A stretch of 54,696 bases of DNA from a virus (IMGVR_UViG_3300048598_000478:1-54696); one strand, 5' to 3'. Positions 4,022 to 10,106 are shown, counted from the first letter of the stretch. Notes: generated by a model not told the origin, from the letters alone. Numbers and translations are program-made.

Positions 4022-4620
4022 CCGTCTCCTCCAAACTTCTTCCCGACCTCCGCGACCGCGCGGTCGAGGGCTTCGCTCTTGATCTGACGTTTCGGTGCGC
4101 CGGCGGCTTCCGCCAGATGCTGCTGGATGAAATCAAAATGCCGCTCGCGCTGACATTGCTGGCCGCTGTAGAGCGAGCGGGACCATCCGCACGAGCAATG
4201 CGCGATCTCGTGCTTGAAGGATCGGATCTCGGTGTAGATCGAGTGCAGGCCGATTTCCTTCGCGATCCGGCGCGCGACGATGCGGGCATAGCCCTTGCCG
4301 TCGTCAGTGAGGCGGTGCCAGATCGTGTCCGGCTGGCGCTCGGCAAGACCGAGGCTGCGCAGCAGCGCGAATTCCTGCCGGCCGAACCGGACGGTGGAAT
4401 TCTTCAGGGCTTTCGTCACGGCCTTCGCTACCGCATCGAAGGACATCGATATCAGGGCGGCCTGTGCCGCATTCGGGATGTCGTCGATCTCGATATGGGG
4501 GAGGGGCCTTGCGGGTGCGGGTGCGCCGCCCATCGCGATGCGATCGAGCTCGCGCAATTGCGCGTCGCTCATGCGGGCAAGTCTCGATATCGATATCTGG
4601 ATGGCAGGGTAGTTCGACAT
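4018..4620 (-). CDS. Phage hypothetical protein
   Basis: GGAG RBS, ATG 4620; C-terminal CSCGW...HF..H possible Zn site. Confidence 0.7.
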   Translation of the reverse strand: MSNYPAIQISISRLARMSDAQLRELDRIAMGGAPAPARPLPHIEIDDIPNAAQAALISMSFDAVAKAVTKALKNSTVRFGRQEFALLRSLGLAERQPDTIWHRLTDDGKGYARIVARRIAKEIGLHSIYTEIRSFKHEIAHCSCGWSRSLYSGQQCQRERHFDFIQQHLAEAAGAPKRQIKSEALDRAVAEVGKKFGGDG

Positions 4621-4711
4621 GACGCTACTCCACAACGCTACGGGACAAGGCAAAGCAGCCGGCGCATTGGCGCGCACGGCCGCTAAGGTAAATGATGTCA
4701 TGCTTTTCGGG

Positions 4712-4786
4712 TTGACACATACAGGCGCTAGCGCTAGAACCATGGGGCTTTCCGGGCAATCCCGCCCGGCTCCTGTGGAGGGTTAG
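4712..4786 (+). promoter_or_regulatory. Sigma70-type promoter and leader hairpin of element A
   Basis: TTGACA (4712-4717)-N17-TAGAAC (4735-4740); CCGGGC/GCCCGG hairpin; GGAGG RBS; conserved in element B. Confidence 0.7.
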
Positions 4787-5140
4787 ATGGCCGACAAATT
4801 CGGATGGGATGACAACTTCGGAAACAATCCCGCGCCGTCGCGGCACAAGACGCTTAAGCCGTTGGAACCGTTGCTGCCGGGCGAAACGCGCTCGGAATAT
4901 CTTGATCGGCTGGACCGTGCGGAGGCCGGAAAACCGCAACAGCTTGTCGCCCGCATCAAGCGGAGCAGCAAATACGCCTATCAGGCGCCGAAAGGCGGAT
5001 GGTTCGATGTCCGCGTTGTGCCGGACATGGGCTATGGCCTGCGCGGCAACAATAACAACTACCGCTTTGCCGATGTCGCTTTCGGCGTCCGGCTCGACGA
5101 CGGGACAATCGTCGAACTGGGCAGCGGCAAGAGGGGTTGA
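4787..5140 (+). CDS. Passenger gene A1, hypothetical
   Basis: GGAGG RBS, 117 aa ORF inside the TIRs. Confidence 0.8.
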   Translation: MADKFGWDDNFGNNPAPSRHKTLKPLEPLLPGETRSEYLDRLDRAEAGKPQQLVARIKRSSKYAYQAPKGGWFDVRVVPDMGYGLRGNNNNYRFADVAFGVRLDDGTIVELGSGKRG

Positions 5141-5143
5141 GCC

Positions 5144-5485
5144 ATGGCCAAACCCTATCTGCCGGGCCGCGACGTAGAGATCGATGAGGATGAGTTCGCG
5201 TTGTTCTGCGAAATGACCGAAGAACAGGTCGAGGCCGAAGGCGACCGCGCCAATAAAGACTTCGCTGCCATGCTCGACCGCATGACCCCGCTTGAGGAAT
5301 ACCGGTTCTGGCGGCGCTACATCTTGCAGAACATTATTGATAACCGGCGGCGGCTCCGAAATCCGACCTTGGCGCGGATTGAGATCATTGACCAGTTGTG
5401 GCGCGACGGGATTAAGAAGTCGCAACACAGCCTGCTCAAACACCGTCACCACCTGCGAACCGGCATTTGGCCGGGAGGGGCGTAA
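5144..5485 (+). CDS. Passenger gene A2, hypothetical
   Basis: 113 aa ORF, 3 nt after the A1 stop and 3 nt before the transposase start. Confidence 0.8.
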   Translation: MAKPYLPGRDVEIDEDEFALFCEMTEEQVEAEGDRANKDFAAMLDRMTPLEEYRFWRRYILQNIIDNRRRLRNPTLARIEIIDQLWRDGIKKSQHSLLKHRHHLRTGIWPGGA

Positions 5486-5488
5486 GCC

Positions 5489-6529
5489 ATGCCTCCCCAC
5501 GCCGACGTTCTCCAATGGGAACACCTGCCGTTCCCCAAATCTCTCAGAGACTTCCAGCAGCTCTTTCCCGACGATGATGCGTGTGCCCGATACCTGGAGG
5601 GTGCGAAATGGCCCAAGGGGTTCGTCTGCCCGCACTGCGGCGAAAAGGGCGAGCCGTTCCGCATGGCGACGCGGACCAGCGTCTTGACGTGCCGCAAATG
5701 CCGCAAGCAAACGAGCCTCACGGTCGGGACCGTGATGGCGCGCACGCATTCGCCCCTGACTACATGGTTTTGGGGTGCGTATCTGGTCGCCACCATGACG
5801 CCCGGAATCTCGACGGTGCAGTTTCAGCGGCAACTCGACCTGACGCGCGAGACGGCTTTCCAAATACTGCACAAGCTGCGCGCGGGGATGGTCCGGCAGA
5901 ACCGCGACCGCATCGGCGGCAACCTTGGGCGCGGCGATCACGTCGAGGTTGACGAGACTTACATCGGCGGCGCGGTTCGCGGCCAAGGGCGCGGTCCGCA
6001 AGATCAGACCCTCGTCATGGCCGCTGTAGAGGTCCGCACCCGGCCGGCCAAGAGGGGCGACAAGCCCATGCGGCGCGGCGGGCGCTACGCTGGCCGGTTG
6101 CGGCTGGAAATCATCCCCAATCGCGGCGCGCGCGCCCTGACAGGCTTTGTAGAACAAGCGGTTGAGCCCGGCGCGATGGTCATCACAGACGGCGCGCCGG
6201 GCTACGCCACGCTTGGCAAGCTCGGCTATCAGCACTTGCCGGTTGTCGAGGGTAGCAACCCGGACGTGGCGGAAGAATACCTGCCCATCGTCCACTTGGT
6301 TTTCAGCAACCTCAAAGCTTGGCTGCAAGGCACTCACCACGGGCGCGTCAGCCCTAAGCACCTGCAAGCCTACCTCAACGAGTTCGTGTTCCGCTTTAAC
6401 CGGCGCTTTTACCCGTTCAATTCGTTCCGCTCTTTGCTCGGCATCGGCGCGAACGGCGAAAGCCCGACCTATGACGGGCTTTACGAAGGCACTTGGAAAC
6501 ATCCGACGATGGCTAGTCATCATGACTGA
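5489..6529 (+). CDS. IS1595-family DDE transposase
   Basis: Zn ribbon CPHC...CRKC, HTH, VEVDETY, VITDG..Y, HLQAYLNEFVFRFNRR. Confidence 0.95.
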   Translation: MPPHADVLQWEHLPFPKSLRDFQQLFPDDDACARYLEGAKWPKGFVCPHCGEKGEPFRMATRTSVLTCRKCRKQTSLTVGTVMARTHSPLTTWFWGAYLVATMTPGISTVQFQRQLDLTRETAFQILHKLRAGMVRQNRDRIGGNLGRGDHVEVDETYIGGAVRGQGRGPQDQTLVMAAVEVRTRPAKRGDKPMRRGGRYAGRLRLEIIPNRGARALTGFVEQAVEPGAMVITDGAPGYATLGKLGYQHLPVVEGSNPDVAEEYLPIVHLVFSNLKAWLQGTHHGRVSPKHLQAYLNEFVFRFNRRFYPFNSFRSLLGIGANGESPTYDGLYEGTWKHPTMASHHD

Positions 6530-6671
6530 CCGTCAACCCGTGGGGCTTGTATGTGGAAACCCGAAAAGCATGAATGATGTTTTGAATGAGCGATGGTGAC
6601 TGCCGGCTCCCGCGCGAAAGCGTTCCGGCTTTACGGCATGATGGCGGCCCTCCGTTGATCTCGAAATTCGG

Positions 6672-6714
6672 AAAAGGACCGGACGGGCGGGGAATGCAGT
6701 CACCCGTCCGGCCC
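6672..6714 (-). terminator. Intrinsic terminator in the leftward operon
   Basis: Minus strand GGGCCGGACGGG...CCCGTCCGGTCC followed by TTTT. Confidence 0.65.
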
Positions 6715-6837
6715 AGGTGCCGCCGCACCTCGCGGGATTGCGAAGCCTGATTACGGCGGAGAAAACAGAAGCGGCAGGCGAATGCGTTACATCCGCGCTC
6801 TTCACCTGCCGCTGATGGGGTGACTTACGCAACGCGG

Positions 6838-6990
6838 TCACCGAGTTCTTGATGAAACGAAAAACGCCATGCCGCATCCGCTGAAGGCGATGGTGGCAAC
6901 GGTCTGGCTGTCGAAGTGATGGCCGAACAGGCTTGCTATCGCGCAACCCAAACAGACCATTGAGTAGACGAAATCGATCTGTCTACCCAT
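6838..6990 (-). CDS. 50-aa hydrophobic peptide
   Basis: MGRQIDFVYSMVCLGCAIASLFG...MAFFVSSRTR; TGATG coupling and GGAGG RBS; below the ORF-track cutoff. Confidence 0.55.
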   Translation of the reverse strand: MGRQIDFVYSMVCLGCAIASLFGHHFDSQTVATIAFSGCGMAFFVSSRTR

Positions 6991-7039
6991 CACGCCCCTC
7001 CCTGTTCTTTGGAGCGGGCGAGGGCGGCGTCGATCATCT
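6990..7039 (-). pseudogene. Detached 3' end of the gene interrupted by element B
   Basis: Removing element B restores ...DLEMI-DAALARSKEQGGA* in frame. Confidence 0.85.
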
Positions 7040-7079
7040 CATGCTTATCCGGTTTGAACATACGACCCCCAAAGGTTGA

Positions 7080-8129
7080 TTAGTCATGATGGCTTGCCAT
7101 CGTCGGATGCTTCCAAGTTCCTTCGTAAATCCCGTCATAGGTCGGGCCTTCGCCGTTCGTGCCGATGCCGAGCAGCGAGCGGAAGGCGTTGAACGGATAG
7201 AAGCGGCGATTGAACCGGAACGTGAACTCGTTGAGGTAGGCTTGCAGGTGCTGCGGCTCGACGCGCCCGTGGTGCGTCCCTTGCAGCCATGCTTTGAGGT
7301 TCGAAAAGACAAGGTGGACGATCGGCAGGTATTCTTCGGCCACGGCCGGGTCATTTGCCTCAACAACCGGCAAGTGGTCATAGCCAAGCGCCTTGAGGCC
7401 GTTGTAGCCGCCCCAAGCGTCCGTGATGACCATCGCACCCGGCTCGACGGCCTGTTGCACAAAGGCGGTCAAGGACTTAGCGCCGCGCGTGGGGACGATT
7501 TCCAGCCGCAGGCGGCCCGCGTAGCGCCCGCCGCGACGGGTCGGCTTGTCGCCCTTCTTGGGCGGCCGGGATCGGACTTCGACGGCGGCCATAACCAGCG
7601 TCTTTTCGTCCGCGTGGACGCCCTTGCCTTGGCCTCGCGTCACGCCACCGATGTAAGTTTCGTCGATCTCGACGTGATCGTTGCGGCCAAGGTTGCCGCC
7701 GATCCGGTCGCGACCCTGCCGCACCATGCCAGCGCGCAGCTTGTGCAGGATTTGGAAGGCGGTTTCGTACCGGCTCAGGCCAAGCTGGCGCTGGAACTGC
7801 ACCGCCGACATGCCCGGCGTCATGCTCGACACCAGATAGGCTGCCCAAAACCAGATAGTCAGCGGCGTATGCGTCCGCTGCATCACGGTATCAACTGTCA
7901 GGGACGTTTGTTTACGGCAGGCGCGGCACGTCAAGACGCTGGTTCGCGTCGCCAATCGGAAGGGTTCGCCCTTCTCACCGCAATGCGGGCAGACGAAACC
8001 CTTGGGCCACTTCGCGCCCTCAAGATAACGGGCGCACGCGGCGTCGTCTTTGAACAACCGCTGGAAGTCCCTGAGAGATTTGGGGAACGGCAGGTGTTCC
8101 CATTGGAGCACGTCGGCATGGGGAGGCAT
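7080..8129 (-). CDS. IS1595-family DDE transposase
   Basis: Close paralogue of 5489-6529 (first 23 aa identical; VEIDETY, VITDA, YLNEFTFRFNRR). Confidence 0.95.
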   Translation of the reverse strand: MPPHADVLQWEHLPFPKSLRDFQRLFKDDAACARYLEGAKWPKGFVCPHCGEKGEPFRLATRTSVLTCRACRKQTSLTVDTVMQRTHTPLTIWFWAAYLVSSMTPGMSAVQFQRQLGLSRYETAFQILHKLRAGMVRQGRDRIGGNLGRNDHVEIDETYIGGVTRGQGKGVHADEKTLVMAAVEVRSRPPKKGDKPTRRGGRYAGRLRLEIVPTRGAKSLTAFVQQAVEPGAMVITDAWGGYNGLKALGYDHLPVVEANDPAVAEEYLPIVHLVFSNLKAWLQGTHHGRVEPQHLQAYLNEFTFRFNRRFYPFNAFRSLLGIGTNGEGPTYDGIYEGTWKHPTMASHHD

Positions 8130-8132
8130 GGC

Positions 8133-8420
8133 TTACCTGCCTTCCCCGACCAGCCGCGTGCACTCGGGCTGCTTGGCCATGTATTCGGCGCGCCGGACAA
8201 GGTTGGCCGCATCGTGCCGCAGTGGCTCATCCGAGTAGTACCAGCGGCGGAAAATCCCGCGCCACCCCGTCTGCTCAAGCGAAAACCGATGAAGCAGGCC
8301 AAGGCACTCCATGAGCAAGGTCCGATCGCTCATTTGGTAGGGTTGCGGATCAATCAGCGGCGGACGCACAACGTGCTCTTTAGGGCACGAAAAGCCGTCA
8401 GATGTGCTCTTAAGCGTCAT
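8133..8420 (-). CDS. Passenger gene B2, hypothetical
   Basis: 95 aa ORF with 3-nt spacers to both neighbours. Confidence 0.75.
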   Translation of the reverse strand: MTLKSTSDGFSCPKEHVVRPPLIDPQPYQMSDRTLLMECLGLLHRFSLEQTGWRGIFRRWYYSDEPLRHDAANLVRRAEYMAKQPECTRLVGEGR

Positions 8421-8423
8421 GGT

Positions 8424-8822
8424 TCAAATCCTAACCTTCGCGATTGCGGCCTCAGCCCGCTCTACTGCCGTCTCGTATCGCGCCTCCCCACCAACTGGGG
8501 CCGTGTTCCCGGACGCTTCAATCAACTCCTTGAGCGCCCCAAGCAATTGGAGACGCTCAAACGCCACGCGCGCCAGGACAACGAACAGCGTCTCAATGTT
8601 GTGGTCGCCACGGTATTTTTGAGCGACGGCCGCAAGAATCTTCCCTTCTTCGGGTTCGAACGGTGCTGGCCTGTTATAATTTTCAATGAGATCAGCCTTA
8701 GCGGCTTCCGGCGTGGGGCCAAGGCCACAAACGCTGCCGGTGTCGTATGTGCCCCAACAAGCCGCCCAGCGATATTCGGAAGGGGCGTGCATTTGCTCGA
8801 AAACAGAGATCGTCTCAGGCAT
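8424..8822 (-). CDS. Passenger gene B1, hypothetical phage-like protein
   Basis: GGAGG RBS, ATG 8822 at the same position as the A1 start; ends LLGALKELI...AEAAIAKVRI. Confidence 0.75.
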   Translation of the reverse strand: MPETISVFEQMHAPSEYRWAACWGTYDTGSVCGLGPTPEAAKADLIENYNRPAPFEPEEGKILAAVAQKYRGDHNIETLFVVLARVAFERLQLLGALKELIEASGNTAPVGGEARYETAVERAEAAIAKVRI

Positions 8823-8910
8823 CTTATCCTCCAAAGGAGCCGGGCGGAATTGCCCGGAAAGTCCCATGGTTCTAGCATTAGGCGCTGTATGTGTCAACCG
8901 GATAAGCATG

Positions 8911-9267
8911 GATCATCTCAAGATCTTTTTGGAAGTCGGCGTAACGCGCATTCGCCTCATAGCTCGCTCGCATAGCGCGGCCCTGTACGTATTCGCGCGC
9001 TATCACCAGCGCCTTCACGAGATCGTCGTGGGAGTTGACGGCGCGGACGATCAGATCGGCGTCGGCTTTCATTCGGTTTGTGACCGAGCGGCCTTCGTTG
9101 TAGAGCGAACAGACCTCTGATCCTTCAGCAAATTCGTTTTTTGGATCGTGGCGGATAATGATCGTGTTGCTGTGCTCTTTCGCCGAACACCAAGGCGTCG
9201 GCGTATGCTCGCCCGCCTTCTCAATCCCCACGTCTTCCGTCTTTGCAAGGGGGAGGGTGTCGGTCAT
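8911..9267 (-). pseudogene. Phage hypothetical protein (HTPxPW type), 3'-truncated by element B
   Basis: HTPTPW...ADADLIVRAVNSHDDLVKAL; true C-terminus lies at 6990-7039. Confidence 0.8.
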
Positions 9268-9476: not shown

Positions 9477-9583
9477 CACCCCCTCCATCCGATCTGCACC
9501 ACGACCGCGATCATTGCGACCATGAGAGCAAGGCCGATCCAGAATTCAGAGGCGGGGATGTAGGCGCGGGGGTGCATGGTCAT
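9476..9583 (-). CDS. Small membrane peptide, copy 1
   Basis: MTMHPRAYIPASEFWIGLALMVAMIAVVVQIGWRG; ATGA/TGATG overlaps. Confidence 0.7.
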   Translation of the reverse strand: MTMHPRAYIPASEFWIGLALMVAMIAVVVQIGWRG

Positions 9584-10005
9584 GCTGCCTTGCGCTGTTC
9601 TGGCGCTGCTGATTGCGCGATCTGTTCGACCAGGTCGGCGATGCGGCGCCGCAGTTTCGGACAGGCGATGCCGGTGAAGGCGCGCGCGATCGCGATGCCG
9701 TCGGTCGTCGCCACGAAATCGTCGACGAAGGACGGCGATCCGGAATCCAGATAAGCGGCAGCCCCTCCCGGCGTGACCCCGTTGCCCTCGAAGAAGAAGG
9801 CGACCTCGACGCCAAGGATCGTTGCGATCTGCTGCAGCCGGCCGGCCCCGATCCGGTTCACGCCCTTCTCGTATTTCTGGACCTGCTGGAAGGTGAGATC
9901 GAGCGCTGCGCCAAGCTTCTCCTGGCTCATGCCGAGCATCATGCGGCGCATCCGCACGCGGGAGCCAACGTGCTTGTCGGTCGGGTTCTGAAACTTGTTC
10001 TTCAT
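9580..10005 (-). CDS. XRE-family HTH regulator
   Basis: DKHVGSRVRMRRMMLGMSQEKLG..L.LTFQQVQKYEKG.NRI. Confidence 0.92.
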   Translation of the reverse strand: MKNKFQNPTDKHVGSRVRMRRMMLGMSQEKLGAALDLTFQQVQKYEKGVNRIGAGRLQQIATILGVEVAFFFEGNGVTPGGAAAYLDSGSPSFVDDFVATTDGIAIARAFTGIACPKLRRRIADLVEQIAQSAAPEQRKAA

Positions 10006-10106
10006 CACCCCCTCCCCACGATCTGCACCACGATCACGATCATCGCCATCGTAAGAGCGAGAGATATCCAGAAGGGGGAGGAGGGTTCGTAGGCGCGGGT
10101 GTTCAT
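10005..10106 (-). CDS. Small membrane peptide, copy 2
   Basis: MNTRAYEPSSPFWISLALTMAMIVIVVQIVGRG; paralogue of 9476-9583. Confidence 0.7.
   Translation of the reverse strand: MNTRAYEPSSPFWISLALTMAMIVIVVQIVGRG

Follow-up and report, generated by a model that had tools for sequence, protein, structure and literature searches.

The 54,696-nucleotide DNA stretch IMGVR_UViG_3300048598_000478:1-54696, an IMG/VR provirus record (hereafter the window, to which as a whole all plain coordinates refer), contains two insertion sequences (IS) of the IS1595 family, elements A and B, which share their ends and their transposase and carry unrelated small open reading frames (ORFs) between leader and transposase gene. 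In related loci this interval is a fixed slot of highly variable content, homology between elements breaks exactly at ORF boundaries, and a short linker formed by a ribosome-binding site, a stop codon, a GCC spacer and the next ATG is specific to the slot. With moderate confidence, these properties are ascribed to an abundant clade of ISSod11-like transporter IS (tIS), always passenger-carrying, in which a left-end promoter would serve ORF-precise, phage-derived cassettes that recombine at the linker. The family appears to be a vehicle by which small virus genes pass from one genome to another.

The cargo slot and its boundaries

An earlier note on this DNA had described two complete sibling elements, each with its own terminal inverted repeats and 8-bp target duplication, and therefore independently inserted, 467 bp apart (6573-7039). 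The sequence confirms this description, the right ends of both elements pointing toward each other. The inverted repeats form 29-nt arms with 90% complementarity in A and 40-nt arms with 75% complementarity in B. The left ends are 85% alike over 96 nt (4699-4794 versus 8815-8910), up to the first start codon, and a second stretch of similarity runs from approximately 16 nt before the transposase start to the right end, with transposase regions that are 79-85% alike at the DNA level and encode proteins that are 83% identical. Between these two blocks no similarity was found in the cargo interval (4795-5472 versus 8146-8814, 670-680 nt), and the four cargo ORFs of A and B belong to four different blastp families. 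Of the common chassis claimed in the note, left end and transposase stand, while the promoter is unproven, no site having emerged from a promoter scan, and the leader hairpin has weak z-scores, as detailed below.

Searches with both transposases yielded 94 related loci (25 viral, 9 from metagenome-assembled genomes (MAGs) and 60 metagenome; designated by L numbers in the following), 73 of which include the left end and the transposase start; after removal of 10 exact duplicates, 63 distinct slots were available. Their length varies from 90 to 1754 nt (median, 624 nt), and 59 of them hold one to six tightly packed ORFs, with an ORF coverage of about 95% in most. Two ORFs are the commonest content (38/63), the remaining slots having none (4), one (9), three (10), five (1) or six (1), so that the two unrelated ORFs per slot noted before are correct for A (117 and 113 amino acids) and B (132 and 95 amino acids) but not as a rule. 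No bare element was found among the 63 slots: in the four that lack an upstream ORF, the cargo lies instead between transposase and right end, on the other strand. N6/N4 DNA methyltransferase genes (L006, L019) are part of this downstream cargo, as is a phosphoadenosine-phosphosulfate (PAPS)-reductase-like gene (L072), and L004 combines one upstream ORF with a downstream C5 methyltransferase. By blastp (E ≤ 1e-4), 102 families are distinguished among the 126 cargo ORFs (an overcount, see below), 90 of which are singletons, and the ORFs make up 54 distinct arrays. The fixed hypervariable slot of the earlier note is therefore upheld, and a preponderance of cargo-free homologues, which would have spoken against it, was not seen in this sample. 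Its size constraint had to be given up, because the 40 delimited full elements measure 1411-2845 bp (median, 1785 bp) and the close lengths of A and B (1874 and 1871 bp) are a coincidence.

The content of the slot is modular. Different neighbours are found in 9 of the 12 recurring cargo families, the commonest of which, F1, is followed by F2 in five slots out of five. The nearest transposase pairs, with about 93% nucleotide identity, often have no common cargo (L026/L050; L003/WA, 91.5%), and the same cargo family is also found on chassis that are just 70-85% identical. In loci L011 and L014, similarity extends from the left end over ORF1 and its junction to ATGGCC, is then lost, and resumes at GGCGTAAATG to continue into the transposase; L059 and L060 have the first 26 nt of the repeat in common, differ in leaders and ORFs and regain similarity at ACTGAGC(C/T)ATG. 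Further element pairs show the same sharp change-over at ORF boundaries, and one metagenome-run contig with a relative of B passenger 2 leaves the window at 8131, within the 3-nt spacer. Homology between elements breaks exactly at ORF boundaries, and the precise, non-ragged exchange that had been postulated is found. In addition, a second left-end-like repeat occurs inside the five-ORF slot of L003 (L003:3261-3500), immediately followed by a 68-amino acid ORF resembling the N-terminus of the downstream methyltransferase of L006, which suggests a rearrangement between two element kinds.

Most ORF boundaries in the slots coincide with a linker composed of Shine-Dalgarno (SD) sequence, stop codon, GCC and ATG (consensus, GGAGGGCTGAGCCATG). 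The spacer is exactly 3 nt long at 45 of the 67 internal junctions, whereas at the transposase junction it is 3 nt in 26 and 0 nt (TAA-ATG) in 23 of 59 cases. In a scan for stop-to-ATG distances, 3-nt gaps accounted for 72 of 160 candidates in the slots versus 39 of 1041 in 355 kb of flanks, where the ATGA overlap dominates (388/1041). The three spacer bases are G, C and C in 56, 59 and 60 of the 72 cases, respectively, and a G-rich ribosome-binding site and C-TGA precede them. The sequence TGAGCCATG is found behind 27 of the 126 cargo ORFs (24 families) versus 8 occurrences in 715,138 nt of flanks, both strands counted, and the exact 16-mer GGAGGGCTGAGCCATG stands behind ORFs of 8 unrelated families, all of which consequently end in Glu-Gly. 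The linker is specific to the slot. The first 60 nt of the transposase gene are no more conserved than several later stretches, so that a special conserved recombination or regulatory site at its 5' end, also considered, was not seen.

Mobility, family and setting of the elements

Element B moves as a unit with its cargo. It was found at 98-100% identity, passengers included, in four runs of four studies (soil, aquatic and two wastewater), and the flanking sequence of those contigs departs from that of the window precisely at 7039/7040 and 8910/8911. For three of these runs the contigs cover the two flanks, with matching 8-bp duplications of their own (GTTTGTTA, ATCCGAAT and AGATAAAT). Every flank is documented by one contig. 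Element A and the flanks of the window occur in the four runs as short, scattered pieces only. Among the relatives, perfect 8-bp duplications were found in 41 unique insertions, a number that excludes chance, and a further 11 insertions have both ends but lack a perfect duplication, the copies in some cases being off by just one or two letters. With a GC content of 32% for the duplications versus 59% for the flanks, the elements favour AT-rich 8-bp targets. Extra family end repeats were also observed within 3.5 kb of a full element (L005:7835-7872, L026:6811, L017:6219, L061:464 and 2761); insertions seem to cluster, as those of A and B do, by local hopping or in a tolerated region.

Two non-autonomous derivatives were recognized. 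L008:494-1170 is a 677-bp element with the family repeats, a perfect duplication (ATGTCTTT) and two ORFs (111 and 112 amino acids) but no transposase, located 1.5 kb from a full element on the same contig. L103:3020-3707, of 688 bp (duplication, ATTTGGTT), is an internal-deletion derivative that retains leader, one passenger and linker, its second ORF being fused in frame to the last approximately 63 transposase codons. The former, with repeats and duplication around two ORFs in the absence of a transposase, resembles the mobile insertion cassettes of IS231 (as cited in PMC3129680), which belong to another IS family; one such derivative was found here.

Both transposases match PF12760 and PF12762 (Zn_ribbon_IS1595, N-terminal, and DDE_Tnp_IS1595) above the cut-offs and score 179 and 191 bits with NF033547 (cut-off, 75). 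The element ends are CATGCTTATC in B and CATGCTTTTC in A, and CATGC(C/T)T(A/T)TC in relatives. The ISSod11 end consensus of the ISfinder table, nnnGcnTATC, fits both ends, that of A with one mismatch, in agreement with the likeness to ISSod11 ends suggested in the earlier note. The residues D155, D234, H283-x6-K290, E298, R302 and R305, as read from the translation and conserved between A and B, have a suitable spacing and are candidates for the ISSod11 catalytic signature (DDHK+ER4R7). Zinc ribbon, DDE_Tnp_IS1595 domain, 8-bp duplications and ends resemble those of the ISSod11 subgroup, and the spacing of the catalytic residues may do so as well. Described members of the latter are about 1.0-1.1 kb long with a single ORF, whereas the elements described here are larger and passenger-carrying, as found in 40 out of 40 delimited ones. 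A and B are two independent insertions and probably active members of an ISSod11-like IS1595 clade. A table of PMC7371123 lists lengths of 700-1287 nt for ISPna2 and ISSod11 subgroup members of the IS1595 family in Ralstonia.

Transporter IS were first described for members of the IS1595 family (Siguier et al. 2009, as cited in PMC3129680 and PMC9330008). The present elements resemble them in that genes not involved in transposition lie within the inverted repeats and move with the element: the duplications enclose the cargo, and B was found with the same cargo at other sites. Passenger-bearing IS1595 members are therefore already known as a kind, and it is the linker-delimited hypervariable array that may be new. 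We know of no described tIS group with an upstream operon of linked ORF-precise cassettes, a conserved linker and approximately 100 cargo families. A hypervariable, linker-delimited passenger slot in an IS was not found in the full-text literature searched; ISfinder, TnPedia and supplements lay outside that search and may hold an earlier description.

The clade is abundant. Of 8000 scored candidate proteins, 6175 matched its transposase at E ≤ 1e-30, the source being, with few exceptions, uncultured material from soil, water and sludge, and the protein cluster nearest to the B transposase (97% identical) has 187 member sequences. In cultured phage records the transposase found just three distant matches (25-28% identity) and A passenger 1 none. 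As to prophages being the usual targets, which the earlier note had considered, the picture is mixed: when the 45 flanking ORFs at eight MAG loci were scanned against PHROG, ABC transporters were among the matches as well as two integrases and a head-tail adaptor. In a tblastx comparison of the locus flanks with the window most loci share nothing with it, so that the hosts are diverse.

In the window itself, A and B are located in the accessory early region of a prophage, bracketed by an integrase gene (758-1858, -) and a CI-like repressor gene (9580-10008, -). Insertion of B cut off the last approximately 14 codons of a resident gene whose family, phrog_1273, is the PHROG family matched most often by cargo ORFs of the clade. 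A 51-amino acid ORF in the gap between A and B (6838-6993, -) overlaps with its start the natural end of the interrupted gene, so that B parts two genes that were probably coupled. The features of the two elements are collected in the table.

Table. Features of elements A and B and of the interrupted prophage gene, in coordinates of the window.
Feature	Position	Strand	Remarks
Element A	4699-6572	+	1874 bp; complete IS1595-family element
Element B	7040-8910	-	1871 bp; complete IS1595-family element
Target duplication of A, left copy, AATGATGT	4691-4698	.	identical to 6573-6580
Target duplication of A, right copy, AATGATGT	6573-6580	.	read from sequence
Target duplication of B, GATCATCT, copy beside right inverted repeat	7032-7039	.	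read from sequence
Target duplication of B, GATCATCT, copy beside left inverted repeat	8911-8918	.	read from sequence
Left inverted repeat of A, putative -35 hexamer TTGACA (4712-4717) inside	4699-4726	+	repeat search; hexamer in nearly all relatives
Leader of A: -10-like TAGAAC (4735-4740), predicted hairpin CCGGGC/GCCCGG (4752-4769), SD GGAGGG (4777-4782)	4735-4786	+	candidate promoter
A passenger 1, 117 amino acids	4787-5140	+	phrog_21559 and phrog_18597 matches
Linker between A passengers, GAGGGGT-TGA-GCC-ATG	5131-5146	+	sequence
A passenger 2, 113 amino acids	5144-5485	+	ORF call
Linker from A passenger 2 to transposase, GGAGGGGCG-TAA-GCC-ATG	5474-5491	+	sequence
Transposase of A, 346 amino acids, IS1595 family	5489-6529	+	domain matches
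Right inverted repeat of A	6545-6572	+	repeat search
Right inverted repeat of B	7040-7079	-	repeat search
Transposase of B, 349 amino acids	7080-8129	-	domain matches
B passenger 2, 95 amino acids (family F2)	8133-8420	-	ORF call, blastp families
B passenger 1, 132 amino acids (family F1)	8424-8822	-	ORF call, blastp families; phrog_1273
Leader and left inverted repeat of B	8823-8910	-	repeat search, alignment to A
Resident prophage gene, phrog_1273 family, 3' part removed by B	8911-9267	-	truncation read from sequence; called ORF 8878-9267 matches phrog_1273

Origin and nature of the passengers

Homologues of the passengers are found in phage genomes away from any IS. The conserved core of A passenger 1, of approximately 65 amino acids and with 134 representative relatives, also occurs in viral contigs with neither an IS nearby nor a linker (L037-L039), and for A passenger 2 a homologue of equal length, 71% identical and with the ending GCGTGAGC, lies outside any IS in L040. 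The clearest candidate source locus is L011:5785-7285, where, 2 kb from an IS on the same contig, a pair of neighbouring genes in an ordinary phage operon matches the two-gene cargo of L005; the match begins within the upstream gene, approximately 20 codons ahead of its end, and extends to the stop codon of the downstream one. More upstream, this operon contains an ATGA overlap, and a helix-turn-helix gene comes after it. Conversely, at L042:1840-2590 (on the same contig as L044), L043:2800-3240 and L027:3290-3550, linker cassettes are accompanied by a piece of the leader or by the initial 9-16 codons of the transposase gene; transposase and end repeats are otherwise absent, and these loci look like decayed elements that left their cargo in the phage. 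With both non-IS homologues and decayed arrays present, genes may have passed in either direction in an individual case. In L043 the N-terminal half of the first passenger differs, making this ORF a chimera. It was also considered that truncated captures receive their stop codon from the linker in every case. This was abandoned as a general rule, since the L005/L011 match and L040 end at the native stop; A passenger 1 still agrees with it, as two of its non-IS relatives, L038 and L039, extend 30-110 amino acids past the end of the IS copies.

A rearranged remnant is present at L099:517-1332, where a truncated transposase (residues 258-346) has on its opposite strand, next to each other, a relative of A passenger 1 and one of B passenger 2. 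The start of the L042 contig (L042:1-400) is a tandem repeat that encodes a repeated pentapeptide, PTSRV or HPRGW depending on the frame.

Few passengers resemble proteins of known function. Neither Pfam nor NCBIfam matches were obtained for the four passengers of the window, and in the Protein Atlas two passengers found only unnamed clusters below 0.9. Across the 126 cargo ORFs, 15 Pfam families, mostly zinc ribbons, were each matched by one or two ORFs; one ORF has a Lar restriction-alleviation domain (L003:2662-2901) and one an antitoxin-type domain. Thirteen PHROG families were matched, with phrog_1273 matched by 4 of the 126 ORFs and two families annotated 'host nuclease inhibitor'; a strong match of this name was not traced to an ORF among 16 candidates scanned. 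PADLOC gave no match with any of the 126. The structure of A passenger 1, modelled with 71 sequences, is predicted to be a small beta-rich domain (predicted local distance difference test (pLDDT), 83), and a model from 6 sequences (pLDDT, 52) was discarded; the fold found no match at E ≤ 0.001, the best values being 0.78 in PDB and 0.11 in BFVD.

Proposed cassette exchange and alternative explanations

In the mechanism that is proposed, a promoter with its -35 box in the left inverted repeat would drive a single operon consisting of leader hairpin, one to six passengers and transposase. In this layout an ORF stops 3 nt, or 0 nt, ahead of the start codon that follows and encodes in its own last codons the ribosome-binding site for it, a packing by which translation would probably be coupled through to the transposase. 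The passengers would be whole ORFs or short ORF runs from accessory early regions of temperate phages, and co-resident elements would swap them by recombination in short conserved sequences, namely the repeat at its end with the -35 box, the beginning of the transposase gene and the linker (GGAGGGCTGAGCC-ATG), whose homogenised sequence would raise the exchange rate. Phage annealing recombinases tolerate short homology and are a plausible catalyst of the exchange. The element would then transpose with its current cargo into AT-rich 8-bp targets, and the phage may benefit from the genes so acquired.

The left-end promoter is a plausible but unproven candidate. TTGACA is separated by 17 nt from TAGAAC in A, and the second hexamer of relatives is TAGTAT or TAGTGT after TGn. 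A terminator scan returned one terminator-like site versus 5.1 expected. The leader hairpin is predicted in A and B, and relatives have the compensatory variants CCGAGC/GCTCGG and CGGGGC/GCCCCG.

Several points weigh against the exchange of phage-derived cassettes as set out above. A strict promoter scan of 4500-9100 gave no site, and the z-scores of the hairpins (-0.9 and -1.8) are not significant compared with shuffled sequences. The linker is not obligatory, because the cargo of L005 keeps its native junction and a 12-nt spacer before the transposase. Of the 67 internal junctions, 22 are not of the 3-nt type. The coincidence of breakpoints and linkers partly restates that the cassettes are whole ORFs, and is no proof of a crossover in the linker. 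Furthermore, the sample was drawn by peptide patterns at the transposase ends and consists of close relatives only, mostly with 72-98% identity; the blastp families overcount the true ones because short diverged proteins escape; and the ORFs were called mechanically, with approximately seven uncertain arrays (e.g. L015, L035 and L036). The phage specificity of the elements is unproven given the mixed flank content. Finally, more than 90% of the cargo has no assignable function, and the nameable part, downstream methyltransferases included, amounts to fewer than 10 genes, which by their annotation point to DNA modification and anti-restriction.

The main alternative, unlikely on balance, is that the linker reflects selection for translational coupling only and has no role in recombination, the passengers having entered by rare illegitimate recombination, been trimmed and tuned, and been redistributed by homologous exchange in the long conserved chassis of leader and transposase or in shared cassettes. 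Every linker does provide the ribosome-binding site, stop and start that coupling needs. GCC-ATG is, moreover, the transposase's own start context, as cargo-free leaders end in GGAGTAAAGAGCCATGCC, the cargo of L005 manages with a native, non-canonical junction, and from the end of the L040 homologue small changes suffice to make a linker. However, coupling requires no fixed stop, spacer length or spacer sequence, yet the exact 16-mer recurs in unrelated families, and the phage genes in the flanks mostly use ATGA overlaps. A swap of the L011/L014 type, in addition, needs one crossover at the linker with an unrelated neighbour on one side. The small ORFs might also be regulators of transposition rather than passengers, as reported for Orf121, the small upstream ORF of IS91 (bioRxiv 10.1101/2025.01.24.634351). 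Their position upstream of, and apparently coupled to, the transposase, and the presence of cargo, upstream or downstream, in every sampled element would agree with such a role, but it can be given hardly any credence: no single regulatory function can be common to 102 unrelated families, an upstream ORF is missing from four slots, some cargo is Lar-like or encodes methyltransferases, and homologues are ordinary phage genes away from any IS.

The array also invites comparison with integrons, to which it is similar in having promoterless, very diverse and reshuffled cassettes behind one (here putative) promoter. A true cassette platform, in which units of the form ATG-ORF-...CTGAGCC would be inserted and excised at GAGCC^ATG in an integron-like manner by a site-specific or transposase-assisted reaction, could account for promoter-proximal, promoterless, ORF-precise units with a repeated, slot-specific boundary sequence, for their extreme diversity and for their reshuffling, and the linker core GCTGAGC, read from the consensus as the palindrome GCTNAGC, might be a recognition site. 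It is nevertheless considered improbable. Elements A and B each hold two passengers without a Pfam match and a DDE transposase, with no IntI-type tyrosine recombinase and no other recombinase; the linker is short and variable, and a third of the junctions deviate from it; multi-gene cargo keeps native junctions; and no free or circular cassettes or empty linker sites were observed. Unlike integrons, the platform is a small DDE transposon and the boundaries are translation-initiation linkers of approximately 16 nt, and with 0-3 nt plus a ribosome-binding site they leave no room for an attC of 60-140 nt (no attC model was run). The exchange of whole genes at short conserved boundaries resembles the modular exchange at gene-boundary linkers in temperate phages, and the acquisition of morons, as reportedly described by Susskind and Botstein and by Hendrix and colleagues, and the cargo resembles accessory early-region genes. 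The boundaries here, however, belong to the transposon rather than to the phage backbone, and the units differ from morons in having no promoter or terminator of their own.

IS are commonly regarded as transposase genes and nothing more, and those of phages as rare and harmful. The present overview of an abundant clade shows closely related members with unrelated passengers, and makes the slot a simple rule by which hundreds of small expressed proteins with candidate counter-defence functions may be harvested. Moreover, a slot-specific linker makes the old idea of gene exchange at short conserved boundaries testable. That the conserved linker is a working exchange site, and the clade a self-mobile, integrase-free cassette platform, is a doubtful proposition at present; if true, any coding segment joined at GAGCC-ATG would be expressed at once from the promoter of the element, in coupling with the transposase, and would travel between phages, and the slot would be a constantly reshuffled natural library of phage counter-defence and host-takeover genes as well as a guilt-by-association marker for new counter-defence genes. 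If the cassettes are phage accessory genes, as is suggested by those that can be named, and of which the slots are possibly a rich source, the elements would constitute a route by which single genes pass between unrelated phages without any need of homology between the phages themselves.

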